DNA of 64,000 nucleotides. Source: a virus. Lineage: Duplodnaviria > Caudoviricetes. Position numbers and translations under genes: made by a program. The notes beneath the pieces are model-generated. The model searched no databases, was not told the origin of the DNA, and saw nothing but the letters and a program-made list of their open reading frames with translations. The number at the start of each line of letters is the position of its first letter. Position 1 is the first letter of the stretch. Positions 788 through 9,985 of the stretch are shown here, piece by piece. The stretch covers positions 1 through 64,000 of IMG/VR virus record IMGVR_UViG_3300021387_001709. One strand, 5' to 3'.

Positions 788-968
788 AAACAAACCAATG
801 CCGATTTGTCTCGGCGGAATCGGCGAAATTAATTATGGCAAACAGTACCGCCTCGGTAATCGTGTTTATGACAGCAGAAGTGTTGCTATGGCGCACTGCG
901 CTAATCCTGTCGGTAATCTCGGCGGTTATACATATTTGTATTTGGTAGTAGAGGTTAATAATGAGTAA
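771..968 (+). CDS. C5-MTase TRD-like mini-ORF
   Basis: QYRLGNRVYDSRSVA..GNLGGYTYLYLV; paralog of 1389..1592. Confidence 0.6.
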   Translation: MEEKSENKPMPICLGGIGEINYGKQYRLGNRVYDSRSVAMAHCANPVGNLGGYTYLYLVVEVNNE

Positions 969-1386
969 ACAACTTTTTAAACTTGACAACCATTTATTGT
1001 ATTTTGATTATATATTGGAATATTTTGACTTATTTCATCCGATGTTCTATGTATGTAGGGACGATAATGATGAACGCTTTTTGGTTTTGAGAATGGATTT
1101 ATGTGAGAAGGAATCATACTTGATTACCGAAATTAGTCTAAACGATTTAAATAATATGCTATTAGGGAATATCACTATAAGATCGGCATTCCTTGATCGA
1201 CCATCATTCTACGAAGTTCAATGTCCAACAGAGAACTATTTAGATGACGTAGTAACAAAACATGAAATATCGGAGTTTCCCATAGAATATTTACCGGACA
1301 AAGATTATAAATATATTTTATATGATGACGAGCATAGAGAGTATCAAAAACGAATTGCGAAAGAATTGGAGAAAACCAATAGTTAA
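961..1386 (+). CDS. Hypothetical protein inserted among the TRD-like ORFs (possibly DUF6575-like)
   Basis: 141-aa acidic ORF with RBS; family call is a tentative resemblance. Confidence 0.5.
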   Translation: MSKQLFKLDNHLLYFDYILEYFDLFHPMFYVCRDDNDERFLVLRMDLCEKESYLITEISLNDLNNMLLGNITIRSAFLDRPSFYEVQCPTENYLDDVVTKHEISEFPIEYLPDKDYKYILYDDEHREYQKRIAKELEKTNS

Positions 1387-2780: not shown

Positions 2781-2853
2781 ATTATTAAAAAATACAATGA
2801 AAATTGAATTTTATTGTATCTATACCGGTACTGCTTATTGTATCGGTATAGAA

Positions 2854-2980
2854 ATTGAATAATGTATCCAGAGAATTTCCGGTATCTTGCCTGAAATAAT
2901 CTGGTAATGGCTACGGGATATAGCCAATCAAAAATCCCCATATATTGTTGGCGGAACTCGACATTGAACGCTATGGGTAG
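2854..2980 (+). ncRNA. Omega/tracr-like scaffold RNA, copy 1
   Basis: Stems CCAGA/TCTGG and GGCTA-CGGGATA-TAGCC; anti-repeat TCCCCATATA (2935-2944) is the exact complement of repeat TATATGGGGA; ACGCTATGGGTAG; covaries with copy 2. Confidence 0.7.
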
Positions 2981-3119
2981 TATATGTCTCGTGTATATAG
3001 GGAGTATCCCCTGTACTCGTAGAGTGGGCATTTTTCCAGCGGACATGCCCCGTGTATATGGGGAGTATCTTGTACTCCTCTTCGGGAAAAAGTTGTTCCA
3101 TCTGTATGGAGAGTATCCT
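2981..3119 (+). CRISPR. Degenerate mini-array 1: three ~30-nt type I-E-like repeats
   Basis: Repeats 2981-3010, 3042-3071 and 3090-3119 (e.g. GACATGCCCCGTGTATATGGGGAGTATCTT); spacers 31 and 18 nt; first period 61 nt. Confidence 0.65.
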
Positions 3120-3237
3120 GAAAGAACTTGCTATGTTCCATATATAGAGAAAATTTATATGGTAAAATGGGTAGTATTCCAGTTTTGTATCATATAATGA
3201 GTGTTCTATAAATGACGATAATTTAGGAGAAAATATA

Positions 3238-4611
3238 TTGGCAAAGAAACAAATACCGACTCGTGTTCAAAAAATACTTATTAAAAATAATAGCAACAAA
3301 CTCGGAAAACCATATAAGCGTGATATAGAAAAATCTAATAATGACGGCATTACATATGGAGACTATTTCAATCAAATAGATGAACTGAGTTTAAAAACCA
3401 GAAATCTTTATAATGAAGCAAATTATGTTATTCGTCAGAAATTTTTTGAAACTTGCAAAGAAAAAGAAGCCGGGTTGCGAGACCATGCGGTTTGGCTAAG
3501 ATATAATGAACTCTATCCGATTTGCAGAGATCTTAATCCATATAATAAGAAACCGCTTAACGATTTTAAAACCGTCGGATGTAGCGGTATTGCACAACAT
3601 ACTCTGAAGATATTGGATAGAAATTGGAAATCATTTTTCGAATCTATTAAAGACTACAAAGAGAATCCAAATAAATATAAGAAAACACCTAAACCTCCGA
3701 GGTATATGAAGAATAATAAACGAGTTGTTGTTGAGTTAACCAGTAATGAGGTGAAAAACAAGGACGGCTACGTATTCTTTTCCTTATCTTCGTTTAAAAA
3801 TCTCAATAATACGTTTAAATTGCGAAATCCCGACGAACGTATTTATTCTGCGAGATTCGTCCCTGTCGGAACTGGTAAAAGTAAAGTTGAAGCTTATGTA
3901 TTTGAGATTATCCAGGTAGTTGATGTTCCAAATATAGAAAGCGTTCCTACCAGGAGAATTGCCGGAATTGATCTGGGAGTTAATAACTTAGCAACTATTG
4001 CAACAAACTGCGGAGTTAATCCGATTGCAATAAACGGTCGCCCATTAAAAAGTATCAATGCTTATTATAATAAGAAGCTTGCCACAATGAAATCCGAGTT
4101 GAAAAAGAAGAACGATAAAGATTGGTCAAAAAGATTAACTAATTTTACACAAAAACGAAATCGTAGGGTCGAAGATTACATTCATAAGGCTTCTGCAAAA
4201 ATTGTAAGTTGGTGCGTTGAAAATAATATCGATACTGTTGTGTGTGGTCATAACACTGATTGGAAACAGGAATCAAACATGGGAGCAACCAATAATCAGA
4301 ATTTTACATACATTCCCCATTCTAAATTGATTCAAAAAATAAAATATAAATGCGAAAACAATGGCATACGTTTTATAGAAACCGAAGAGGGTTACACCAG
4401 TGGCACGAGTTTTCTCGACGGAGAAGACCCCATCAAAGAAAATTACAATAAATCCAGAAGACTTCATCGTGGGATGTTTGTCTCAAATAGCAAAGAACTA
4501 ATCAATGCTGATGTGAATGGGGCTTATCAAATTATTAAAAAGGCATTTCCGGATGCGTATAATGTATGTGATGAATTCGGAAGACATCCTATAATTATTA
4601 ATATTGAATGA
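3238..4611 (+). CDS. tnpB: TnpB/Cas12f-like RNA-guided RuvC nuclease
   Basis: RuvC-I IAGIDLGVNNLA; VVCGHNTDWKQ in place of the canonical Glu, with ETEEGYTS (rearranged Glu clade); RuvC-III INADVNGAYQI; no Zn finger; no tnpA nearby. Confidence 0.9.
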   Translation: MAKKQIPTRVQKILIKNNSNKLGKPYKRDIEKSNNDGITYGDYFNQIDELSLKTRNLYNEANYVIRQKFFETCKEKEAGLRDHAVWLRYNELYPICRDLNPYNKKPLNDFKTVGCSGIAQHTLKILDRNWKSFFESIKDYKENPNKYKKTPKPPRYMKNNKRVVVELTSNEVKNKDGYVFFSLSSFKNLNNTFKLRNPDERIYSARFVPVGTGKSKVEAYVFEIIQVVDVPNIESVPTRRIAGIDLGVNNLATIATNCGVNPIAINGRPLKSINAYYNKKLATMKSELKKKNDKDWSKRLTNFTQKRNRRVEDYIHKASAKIVSWCVENNIDTVVCGHNTDWKQESNMGATNNQNFTYIPHSKLIQKIKYKCENNGIRFIETEEGYTSGTSFLDGEDPIKENYNKSRRLHRGMFVSNSKELINADVNGAYQIIKKAFPDAYNVCDEFGRHPIIINIE

Positions 4612-4727
4612 TGTAGTCGGAGTCAATCCGATAATCGCCACGGGATATGGCGTTTAAGTTAATACTTATAAATCCTCACATAACTAAATATTGGAATACG
4701 GAATATGTGCAGTACGCTATCGGTAGT
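4603..4727 (+). ncRNA. Omega/tracr-like scaffold RNA, copy 2, overlapping the tnpB 3' end
   Basis: Stems TCGGA/TCCGA and CGCCA-CGGGATA-TGGCG; bipartite anti-repeat ATCCTCACATA (4672-4682) plus ATACGGAATA (4696-4705); ACGCTATCGGTAG. Confidence 0.75.
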
Positions 4728-4898
4728 GTTTATTCCGTATGTGTGTGGGATGTCCTACTATATTGATAAAACTAAAAACGGTTTATTCCGTACATGTGTG
4801 GGAATATCCTAAGATGAAGGCGAAATCCAAAGAGGGATATCTTCAAATCAGAAGAAGTACCGTATTACCTAGTTTATTTCGTATGTGGGAGATATCCT
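4728..4898 (+). CRISPR. Degenerate mini-array 2: three repeats plus a probable half repeat
   Basis: GTTTATTCCGTATGTGTGTGGGATGTCCT (4728-4756), GTTTATTCCGTACATGTGTGGGAATATCCT (4781-4810), GTTTATTTCGTATGTGGGAGATATCCT (4872-4898); remnant GAGGGATATCTT at about 4832-4843. Confidence 0.75.
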
Positions 4899-4952
4899 TT
4901 GGTAGCCGATAACTAAATAATTATTTACTACCCATAGAAAGGAATGGTGCGA

Positions 4953-6068
4953 TTGGATCAGATTGATGTTAGTAAATTGCGAGTAGGATAGGTTTATAGT
5001 TATAAAGAATTGTGTGATTTAATAGGAGCCGAATATAAACAGGGGAATAGTAGAACTCTCCAACTCCAGGGTTTTGGGGAGAATGGTTTTCACCGTTTCT
5101 TTAATTTTGAAAAAATTGGCTATGGAAAATATAAGATAATCGAAATATATGAAACGCCATTATACATAAAAAACAACAGAGATGCCGGGAATTCATCCGT
5201 ATATTTACCATACATAGAATTGATAATGCTTCGTTATCTAGCTGCAGAATATGGGAGAGAAATAACTTTTAGCAGAAAAAGGCTCTGGAAGTTACTAGGA
5301 ATGATAAATGAAAAATATGGCTCTATAGAAAATGAAAAATTATTAGAATTAAATAAAGTAATAACATCTTATGAGATTGATAATTTTTATTTTAGAGCAA
5401 ACCATAAACTAGATAGAATATTAAAAACAGCGCTTAATAATCTATCTAATAGAAGTTTAATCGAAGCTATTCCAAAAACTATTATATGTAAGATTGTTAA
5501 CGGCTATGAAAAACATGTTGCGGCGACAGATGAGGAAATAGCAATAATTCTTTCAGTTAATAGGGAAAAATTAGATGAATTTAATTGTGAGACTATTTCT
5601 CAAGTTATTTTAAGAAAAAAACAAAAAGATTTTTTCAAAAAAGTAAATGATGAATTATATAAACGGTATGGTTGGAAATATTATTACAGAGCATACAAAA
5701 TTATATTTAATTACGAAGACATAAAAAGCTTTATACCTCGTCTCGAATTAAACTTAAAAGATGCAATTTCTGGATTGAATTCAAAAATTATCGATGTATT
5801 AAATTCCGAAGCTGAAAATTTATATAATAATAAATTGCAAGAATACAATAAAGGGATTGACGAAGCACAAGATGAAAACAGCTTTATGATTGCAATTAGG
5901 GCATGGCATTATCCGGAAAATTATGTTATTGCTCAGAAATTATTAGCAAAAGAACTAATAAGCATATGTGATCGAGACTCGGACTATGTCGATAATATTT
6001 TTGATAGTTCAGCAGAATATGATGAAATCAATAAAGAACTGGAAGAATTATTTTTGGTTGATGATTAA
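4953..6068 (+). CDS. Putative DNA-binding or replication-initiator-like phage protein, read through TAG at 4989
   Basis: Frame extends upstream to TTG 4953 behind AAGGA, giving ..SKLRVG(Q)VYSYKELCDLIG; function is inferred. Confidence 0.55.
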
Positions 6069-8941: not shown

Positions 8942-9136
8942 TCGGCGGTAGACAAGCACTCAAAGTCGAGAAGACAATGTTAGCCTCGGGAAAGGGACAC
9001 AGGGGAGAGACACCCCAGAGGGCATAGACTAAAAATTGTATTTGCGAATACCCCTCGAACTATGGTGCAACCCGGAAGAGGATGCGTGTGATTGAGGTGT
9101 GGGATAAACCGCGCCGACTGCACACCCGCCGAACCA
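8942..9136 (+). ncRNA. 195-nt tRNA-shaped RNA with encoded 3'-ACCA and expanded anticodon and T regions
   Basis: 7-bp TCGGCGG/CCGCCGA plus ACCA; TA then D-arm GAC-AAGCACTCAAA-GTC; GTGTG/CACAC stem; internal hairpins; intergenic and GC-rich. Confidence 0.6.
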
Positions 9137-9160
9137 GATAATTATAAAAGGAGAAGAGAT

Positions 9161-9985
9161 ATGCCTATACATGATGAAATTGGGACAAGAATGAAAAAGT
9201 ATTACGAAGAAATCCCCAAGACAAGATTAATGAGACGCTGTCCAGTGATCGTGAGAATTGATGGCAAAGCATTCCACAGCTTCACTAGAGGATTTAAGAA
9301 ACCGTTTGATGAAATACTAATCAAATCCATGCAAGAAACCATGAAATATCTCTGTGAGAATATACAGGGATGTGTTCTTGGATACCATCAATCAGATGAG
9401 ATTAGTCTTTTGCTAATAGACTACCAAACACTTAATTCCCAGGCATTCTTTGATTACGAGGTACAAAAGATTTGCAGTATTACTGCTTCGATGGCAACGT
9501 TGGCATTTAATAAATTTTTTTCTAATAACGTCCAAGACTTTGGATATGATTGTTGCGATGATACACTTGGAGAAGAAGTAAACACTGGAAGAGAAGAAGA
9601 CTATCATAGATTTGAAACTGTGTATATGAAGAAACTTCATAAAGCGATGTTTGATAGTCGATGCTTCAATCTGGTGAAGGAGGAATGCACAAATTATTTT
9701 TACTGGCGTCAACTCGATGCCACCCGTAACAGTATCCAGATGGTGGGACAGGCGAACTTCTCGCATAAAGAACTCCAGGGTAAATCTTGCAACGCTATCC
9801 AAGATATGTTGCACGAGCAGCGAGGAATTAACTGGAATGATTTGCCGACTTATCAGAAGCGCGGCTCTTGTTGTATTAAAGTCGAGGAAACAATAAATGA
9901 TGTTGTTCGTCACAAATGGGTTATTGACAATGAGATTCCGATTTTTACCGGTGATGGTAGACAATATATTGAAAAATTAATTTGA
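9161..9985 (+). CDS. tRNA(His) guanylyltransferase (Thg1-like 3'-5' polymerase)
   Basis: RMKKYYE, RIDGKAFHSFT, YHQSDEIS, FDSRCF, WRQLDATRNSI. Confidence 0.92.
   Translation: MPIHDEIGTRMKKYYEEIPKTRLMRRCPVIVRIDGKAFHSFTRGFKKPFDEILIKSMQETMKYLCENIQGCVLGYHQSDEISLLLIDYQTLNSQAFFDYEVQKICSITASMATLAFNKFFSNNVQDFGYDCCDDTLGEEVNTGREEDYHRFETVYMKKLHKAMFDSRCFNLVKEECTNYFYWRQLDATRNSIQMVGQANFSHKELQGKSCNAIQDMLHEQRGINWNDLPTYQKRGSCCIKVEETINDVVRHKWVIDNEIPIFTGDGRQYIEKLI

Follow-up and report, generated by a model that had tools for sequence, protein, structure and literature searches.

How does a nuclease of transposon descent come to stand between two short CRISPR arrays in a phage genome, and what are the conserved elements that accompany each array? 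The question is raised by a tnpB-like gene in IMG/VR virus record IMGVR_UViG_3300021387_001709 (Duplodnaviria; Caudoviricetes), a genome of 189,811 bp judged 98% complete, of which the first 64 kb form the window analysed here. Our results make it probable that this tnpB locus of the phage encodes a type V-like CRISPR system which derives from TnpB and belongs to the TranC kind, with one effector served by two guide modules. In each module a scaffold resembling a tracrRNA (trans-activating CRISPR RNA) precedes a repeat-spacer array, and both parts appear to be detached portions of the omegaRNA, the guide RNA of TnpB.

The effector gene lies between module A (2853-3180) and module B (4602-4898). 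Both modules are on the strand of the gene, the plus strand of the window, to which all window coordinates refer. On each flank the order of elements is the same: a short conserved 5' motif leads into stem 1, and after the TAAT linker come stem 2 and its CGGGATA loop, an anti-repeat, a conserved junction and a short array. The two three-copy repeat families, D1 in array A and D2 in array B, were also reported independently by a repeat finder. R1, a covariance model built on the scaffold core (stems 1 and 2), matched the whole 190-kb phage at exactly two places, modules A and B, and tnpB is present as a single copy. The neighbouring open reading frames (ORFs; 2124-2780 and 5010-6068) matched no Pfam family and thus no recombinase adjoins tnpB. 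A preliminary description of this DNA had claimed the ordered elements on both flanks, two scaffold/array sets with a single effector, and a lack of cas1 and recombinase genes. All of the elements are present at the positions it claimed, both scaffolds covary with their repeats, and neither a cas1 gene anywhere in the phage nor a recombinase gene beside tnpB was found.

To compare loci, relatives were gathered by protein similarity and their DNA set against the window; a second set of 80 Bacillota loci came from a scan of genome contigs. We aligned 13 modules from the window and its relatives, each cut at the end of repeat 1 (an earlier version held 11), and counted pairs in three helices: stem 1, stem 2 and the pairing of loop positions 2-7 with the last 6 nt of the repeat. 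Across the 13 modules 98.6% of cells in these helices were paired, against only 26-44% when the partners were slid by 1-3 columns, and 13 of the 16 pairs had changed on both sides. None of 500 shuffles reached the observed values. The third helix, a pseudoknot, held compensatory changes in four of its six pairs, with the loop/repeat-end combinations GGGATA/TATCCC, GGGCTA/TAGCCT, GGGGCA/TGCCCT, GGGACT/AGTCTT and GGATTA/TAATCT. Relatives with 36-nt repeats obeyed the same rule (GGTTTT/AAAAC, GGATTT/AAATC and GGGTTT/AAACC(C)). Because this covariation exceeds both the shuffled and the slid controls and extends to relatives, the observation is confirmed, and with it the compensatory stem changes and the complementarity of the stem-2 loop to the repeat 3' ends, both proposed earlier. 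A count of 6-mers able to pair with the loop was too permissive with G-U pairs allowed and gave no discrimination. Each anti-repeat had also been said to match the repeats of its own array. This is true of the B scaffold, which favours B repeats (-18.2 vs -12.9 kcal/mol), and untrue of the A scaffold, which does not discriminate (-22.8 vs -21.6 kcal/mol). The scaffold-by-repeat energy matrix is only weakly diagonal, with a weak preference of a scaffold for its own array.

Module A opens with a tracr-like scaffold (2853-2985) recognised by R1 (59 bits, E-value 1.5e-11, at 2853-2929) and by the pair counts. It comprises the 5' motif (2856-2866), stem 1 (2868-2872 with 2900-2904, enclosing an inserted inner hairpin), the TAAT linker (2905-2908), stem 2 (2909-2913 with 2921-2925, loop CGGGATA at 2914-2920), the anti-repeat (2934-2945) and a conserved leader-repeat junction (2969-2985). 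Array A (2986-3180), which was compared with the array of the relative L015, has 25-nt repeats at 2986-3010, 3047-3071 and 3095-3119, a degenerate copy at 3157-3180, and spacers at 3011-3046 (36 nt), 3072-3094 (23 nt) and 3120-3134 (about 15 nt). Its erosion increases towards the tnpB gene.

The scaffold of module B (4602-4727; R1 58.5 bits, E-value 2e-11, and pair counts) begins in the last tnpB codons. Stem 1 (4617-4621 with 4627-4631), the TAAT linker (4632-4635), stem 2 (4636-4640 with 4648-4652, loop CGGGATA at 4641-4647) and hairpin 3 (4656-4667) are followed by anti-repeat 1 (4672-4682) and a non-conserved anti-repeat 2 (4696-4705). Array B (4728-4898) has 29-30-nt repeats at 4728-4756, 4781-4810 and 4872-4898, a 13-nt 3' half-repeat at 4831-4843, and spacers at 4757-4780 (24 nt), 4811-4830 (about 20 nt) and 4844-4871 (28 nt). 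Spacers are thus present where they had been described in both arrays, with limits that were off by a few nucleotides. The minimum free energy fold of module B (z-score -2.1) contains stems 1-3 and a long composite helix, in which both anti-repeats are predicted to pair with repeat 1, leaving the repeat 3' tail unpaired for the loop.

Three further features were seen around the modules. Directly 5' of repeat 1 most modules carry a TAGTG-like motif (2978-2985 and 4722-4727 in the window; columns 196-200 of alignment A7), which could be the scaffold 3' end or an integrase leader-anchoring site. A 13-bp hairpin at 2819-2852, just 5' of the module A scaffold and kept in L015, could be the terminator of the upstream gene or a piece of the module A promoter region; a sigma-70 promoter scan gave nothing above shuffled expectation. 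The module A leader-repeat junction (2971-2985) and the DNA just 3' of array B (4923-4937) form a 15-nt inverted repeat, complementary at 14 of 15 positions, which L015 lacks and which is roughly at chance level for 2.3 kb.

The origin of the scaffold was indicated by the wider matches of R1, which scored the window scaffolds as high as those of relatives. In array-less phage relatives (L001-L006 and L009), none of which had been used in building it, the model found the 3' end of the tnpB ORF with E-values of about 1e-5, and it matched the same place in about 40 of the 80 Bacillota loci. The ORF 3' end is the classical position of the TnpB omegaRNA. In three relatives of 39-40% identity (L022-L024) the scaffold lies inside the tnpB 3' end. 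A Resolvase-domain gene stands directly 5' of tnpB in L024, the IS607 layout, and L023 has matching coding sequence upstream. The loop of these three copies, GGGTTA, pairs with TAACCT, the final bases that they have in common before their flanks diverge. TAACCT is by its position the right end of the IS607 element, immediately before the guide. With the pseudoknot strand at the element end and the scaffold in the ORF, the CRISPR repeat corresponds to a detached 3' portion of the omegaRNA and the scaffold to its 5' body, and L022-L024 represent the ancestral state of the system. Intermediate forms also exist. L007 and L031 have a free upstream scaffold followed by one repeat and one guide; in L034 and L035 a complete repeat and a degenerate one enclose a single spacer; further grades have short arrays, or two modules per effector. 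The preliminary description had read the locus as an intermediate between omegaRNA and CRISPR. That reading is upheld by the scaffold's homology to the omegaRNA which IS607-type relatives carry within the ORF, and a covariance model, which it had put forward as a check, finds the scaffold in phage relatives and in Bacillota. Searches of Rfam, RAGATH-18 included, at E-values up to 1 gave no match in the window region or in the loci of 14 relatives, and identity with the RAGATH-18 right-end element RNA (reRNA) was rejected on this basis.

The effector gene (3238-4611) encodes 457 aa from a TTG start, with a ribosome-binding site, AGGAG (3225-3229, read from the sequence), 8 nt 5' of it. The protein scored 169 bits against the NCBIfam model guided_TnpB (cut-off 100) and 36.5 bits against Cas12f2 (cut-off 450), and contains the Pfam domains OrfB_IS605 and Cas12f1-like TNB. 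D245, E384 and D425 are invariant across 38 relatives and are the likely catalytic residues. G337, an invariant glycine, aligns with the RuvC-II glutamate of AsCas12f, and E384 is an invariant glutamate shortly before the YTS motif. No cysteines follow that motif, which leaves no CxxC zinc finger, and an insertion of about 25 aa specific to the clade is found near the N-terminus. An AlphaFold 2 model of the protein (predicted local distance difference test score 86.9) gave its best fold matches to AsCas12f, with template modelling (TM) scores of 0.60-0.65; ISDra2 and ISFba1 TnpB and Fanzor2 also matched, LaTranC and Cas12p more weakly, and all fold matches were at 7-16% identity. Among solved proteins the family profile reached only ISDra2 TnpB, with an E-value of about 1e-5. 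The earlier assignment to a TnpB family with a rearranged RuvC and no zinc finger is therefore sound, and judged by these residues the nuclease looks active. Membership of type V-F (Cas12f) was rejected, the score being below the NCBIfam cut-off and CxxC motifs being absent.

Modules stand on both sides of the gene in L015 (95% identical) and in L010 and L011 (64%). L014 (65%) has the downstream module only, L029 (53%) has two modules in tandem, both upstream, and L019-L021, L025, L032-L036, L045 and L115 (45-58%) have a single upstream module with 1 to 7 spacers. The cassette lies in differing gene neighbourhoods in L010, L011 and L014. In a quick tree, from which the L001 row was disregarded, the effector groups with IS607-type and phage TnpBs. 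The window clade (5 rows, support 100) nests in a clade of 14 rows (support 99), which takes in L029, L031, L032 and L033 as well, and the L019 group forms a separate array-bearing branch. Proteins of the window clade measure 454-461 aa and go with 25-29-nt repeats; those of the wider family measure 415-432 aa and go with 36-nt repeats.

Some relatives showed peculiarities of their own. L032 has a second, inverted scaffold copy (928-982, minus strand, 48.9 bits), head-to-head with its plus-strand module. Beyond this copy lie hairpins and what may be a single guide, which extends into opposite-strand ORFs; the copy could be a scaffold on its own or what is left of a different element. In L025 (1459-2733) tnpB is frameshifted after about 318 aa, the scaffold and a two-spacer array are intact, and the spacers are unlike those of L019 and L021. 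Both arrays of L011 end in a strong hairpin (1482-1530 and 3186-3235), in which the last repeat's 5' half faces an inverted copy lying just 3' of it; this hairpin could be a terminator or an end-protecting structure. The same TnpB family, with the scaffold in the ORF 3' end, is present in several copies in some Bacillota genomes, namely Mitsuokella multacida (L086, L071, L091) and a Clostridium sp. metagenome-assembled genome (L042-L053), a sign that IS-type copies may still be active beside the array-linked forms borne by phages.

The arrays change faster than the loci that hold them. L019 and L021 have scaffolds that are 100% identical and genes that are 98.3% identical, and their 30-nt spacers are unrelated; L034 and L115 likewise have unrelated spacers despite similar loci. 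Between the window and L015 the scaffolds are 92% (A) and 85% identical and the genes 91.6%, and all spacers bar one are unrelated. The common spacer stands first in array B of the window and third in L015, as would be expected if new spacers are inserted next to the scaffold. Its window copy (4757-4780, 24 nt) is a 5'-truncated form of the 32-nt spacer of L015. Within a lineage spacer length is uniform (30 nt where the repeats have 36 nt, 31-33 nt where they have 29 nt), which suggests an integrase with a ruler. Since the phage carries no Cas1, a host enzyme is the obvious candidate for spacer uptake.

We propose that each module would give one transcript, scaffold then array, with that of module A perhaps extending into the gene. 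The scaffold (about 125-135 nt) would serve as the detached 5' body of the omegaRNA, consisting of stem 1, stem 2, a variable hairpin and the anti-repeat, and each repeat as the detached 3' part, its middle pairing with the anti-repeat. At the repeat's end, the final 6 nt would pair with the stem-2 loop and restore the guide-adjacent pseudoknot; a pseudoknot so rebuilt implies that the spacer occupies the place of the transposon's former fixed guide. Repeat 1 could act in cis as a natural single guide, and later repeats would require the scaffold in trans, in the manner of a tracrRNA. TnpB loaded in this way would cut, through D245, E384 and D425, spacer-matching DNA that adjoins a target-adjacent motif (TAM). 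Transcription, processing of the modules and DNA cleavage are thus predictions from sequence. The uniform array formats (29-nt repeats with 32-nt spacers, 36-nt repeats with 30-nt spacers) point to spacer uptake by host Cas1-Cas2, and by analogy with published relatives (bioRxiv 10.64898/2026.03.27.714800) the system may be used against competing phages or other mobile elements.

Several results weigh against such a working system. Scaffold-tail/repeat duplex energies beat shuffles only modestly (z-scores -0.8 to -3.8), and anti-repeat 2 of module B (4696-4705) is not found in the 95%-identical L015. The search of the whole 190-kb phage for Cas1, the enzyme that spacer uptake would call for, found none, and the genome of Eubacterium segne, which carries L115 and is the sole isolate host examined, lacks a second array built on the L115 repeat. 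None of the spacers yielded a protospacer. The earlier description had proposed spacer searches for rival-phage or host targets, and these gave no target. With blastn-short, the phage's own genome and the collected loci returned only the spacers themselves and the single spacer in common with L015; INPHARED phages matched the arrays of the window, L010, L015, L029 and L036 not at all or at chance level (E-values 0.2-0.7); exact 24-mers of one window spacer and of an L034 spacer had no match in IMG/VR; and 399 sampled Clostridia genomes showed homology to the tnpB gene only, their array matches being at chance level after multiplying by genome number. The arrays might also belong to a decaying relic, in which they no longer give usable guides in this phage and the gene alone survives. 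Spacer lengths in array A are 36, 23 and about 15 nt and those in array B are 24, about 20 and 28 nt, whereas L015 has spacers of 32-39 nt. Array B includes the half-repeat at 4831-4843, and the common spacer has lost the 8 nt at its repeat-proximal junction, which would displace the guide from the TAM; L025, moreover, keeps its array though its gene is frameshifted. Against this, the window ORF is unbroken, its catalytic triad is invariant and its ribosome-binding site is good. Both scaffolds are fully paired and match R1 as well as the scaffolds of relatives do, array A opens with a spacer of full length (36 nt), and TnpB guides of about 16 nt are known to function (PMC13565253). We therefore regard decay as rather unlikely.

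Other explanations keep the parts and change their purpose. The guides could direct cutting of related phages that lack the cassette, which would then spread by repair as a selfish homing element, in the way of transposon or intron-less homing, and would be neither weapon nor defence. Homing is the established role of TnpB (PMC13565253), the family descends from an IS607 TnpB, cassette neighbourhoods differ among L010, L011 and L014, and many relatives hold a single guide (L007, L031, L034, L035). Multiple unrelated spacers of uniform length that turn over in near-identical loci are nonetheless unlike a fixed homing target, and no spacer matches the syntenic loci of the collected relatives, which makes homing improbable. 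An active IS607 element was rejected, there being no serine recombinase tnpA adjoining the gene, one tnpB copy, and arrays in place of a guide derived from the flank. Were the arrays instead meant for a host Cas complex such as type I-E Cascade, with TnpB merely a neighbour, their 29-nt palindromic repeats and 32-nt spacers would be explained as the type I-E format, and solitary viral mini-arrays are known (PMC11656645). Such a complex would not account for a repeat 3' end that covaries with the scaffold loop, a scaffold homologous to the omegaRNA embedded in tnpB, a coupling kept in two array formats (29/32 and 36/30) or a module that invariably adjoins the gene, and we think this explanation very improbable. 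Phage-borne domesticated TnpBs with adjoining guides are also known as the RNA-guided transcription repressors termed TldRs (bioRxiv 10.1101/2023.11.30.569447). The active-looking nuclease argues against a repressor of that type: the RuvC triad that TldRs have lost is invariant here, and no spacer match was found in the phage's own genome or in the 399 scored Clostridia genomes. We rejected membership of the TldRs because the catalytic residues are kept, and hardly any likelihood is left to a TldR-type repressor.

Our preferred reading, a TranC-like system with two guide modules, can be extended into a fuller picture that we offer tentatively, as possible rather than probable. It would be a phage lineage of zinc-finger-less TnpBs with a detached omegaRNA body and arrays in host-integrase formats (29/32 nt as in type I-E, or 36/30 nt), in which capture is left to host Cas1-Cas2, the phage keeps only effector and scaffold, and two-module lineages such as L010 and L029 have partly orthogonal pseudoknot codes. 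If this is true, a single nuclease could draw on two guide sets under separate regulation, for instance one early and one late in infection.

As to genomic setting, INPHARED held no near match to the phage genome and IMG/VR no close relatives of P0004 or P0005. Thg1 and Thg1C domains (tRNA-His guanylyltransferase) were recognised at 106 bits in the ORF at 9092-9985, a gene seldom found in phages, and cassettes of relatives lie near genes for an RNA ligase, a KTI12-like kinase and a DNA ligase.

Jin et al. (Cell 2025, doi 10.1016/j.cell.2025.09.004) defined the intermediates between TnpB and CRISPR as TranC, as related in PMC13565253, PMC13639567 and bioRxiv 10.64898/2026.03.27.714800. By these accounts a TranC is marked by a reRNA that has come apart into tracrRNA and CRISPR RNA (crRNA), and such lineages arose from TnpBs of both IS605 and IS607. 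As far as TranC is set out there, the window resembles it in a TnpB-sized effector placed among IS605/IS607 TnpBs, in an array without adaptation genes and, as the omegaRNA homology, the anti-repeat and the covarying pseudoknot suggest, in what may be a one-piece guide RNA split into a tracr-like scaffold and crRNAs. The effector belongs with transposon TnpBs and not with a Cas12 subtype (guided_TnpB 169 bits, the tree, the Resolvase gene in relatives), and two adjoining arrays show spacer turnover with no Cas1 present. Unlike TranC as these sources describe it, the window has two scaffold/array modules per effector, one upstream and one downstream, a scaffold outside the ORF, and repeats of a type I-E-like format. 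The only solved TranC, LaTranC (9jfq), was a distant fold match (TM 0.48) that the sequence profile did not reach, and the lineage of the window protein is remote from every solved structure. Virus-encoded TnpBs beside CRISPR arrays have been reported from landfill viromes (PMC12607003), and a phage-borne TranC clade of about 414 aa is represented by CauTranC9 (bioRxiv 10.64898/2026.03.27.714800). According to that report CauTranC9 is likewise borne by a Caudoviricetes phage, lacks expanded recognition (REC) and wedge (WED) domains, belongs to a clade of mean size 414 aa, and has a short array with spacers matching phages; the wider family of the present protein, at 415-432 aa and with 36-nt repeats, comes near to it. 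Compared by description only, it differs in its 38-bp repeats from the window clade with its 454-461 aa, 25-29-nt repeats and two modules.

With IS607 TnpB (ISFba1, RAGATH-18 type; PMC11061315, PDB 8iaz) the locus has in common relatives of 39-40% identity that lie behind a serine recombinase gene and carry the scaffold in the tnpB 3' end, with the guide starting at the transposon end; in ISFba1 the guide-adjacent pseudoknot is essential (PMC13639567). It differs in having no tnpA, a single-copy gene, arrays instead of one fixed guide and no RAGATH-18 match. Cas12f (type V-F) provides the best fold matches (AsCas12f) and likewise uses a tracrRNA and crRNA with repeat/anti-repeat pairing, whereas the sequences are no more than 13-16% identical, the Cas12f2 model gives 36.5 bits where its cut-off demands 450, the window lacks cas1, cas2, cas4 and the zinc finger, and the catalytic glutamate is relocated. 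A RuvC-II glutamate shortly before the YTS/zinc-finger region, and not about 50 residues earlier, is known from Fanzors and some TnpBs (PMC13565253). The window protein resembles these, with G337 in the canonical place and E384 invariant, although Fanzors are proteins of eukaryotes or giant viruses and keep the zinc finger.

The novelty first claimed for this locus was overstated, TranC having been published in 2025 and a phage-borne case in 2026. Set beside these known systems, what is new here is detail and a variant, two modules per effector, and not a new principle, the TranC kind being already published. The locus and its relatives give a base-by-base view of a transposon guide RNA becoming tracrRNA and CRISPR repeats, in which one loop, that of stem 2, pairs in the IS607 copies with the 6 nt that close the transposon and in the arrays with the 6 nt that close each repeat. 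They form a natural graded series, from ORF-embedded omegaRNA through a free scaffold with one guide and short arrays to two modules, with effectors of 415-460 aa. The series makes testable the gain of spacers without an own Cas1-Cas2, the pseudoknot code as a rule of array choice, and the usefulness of such very small nucleases as editors.

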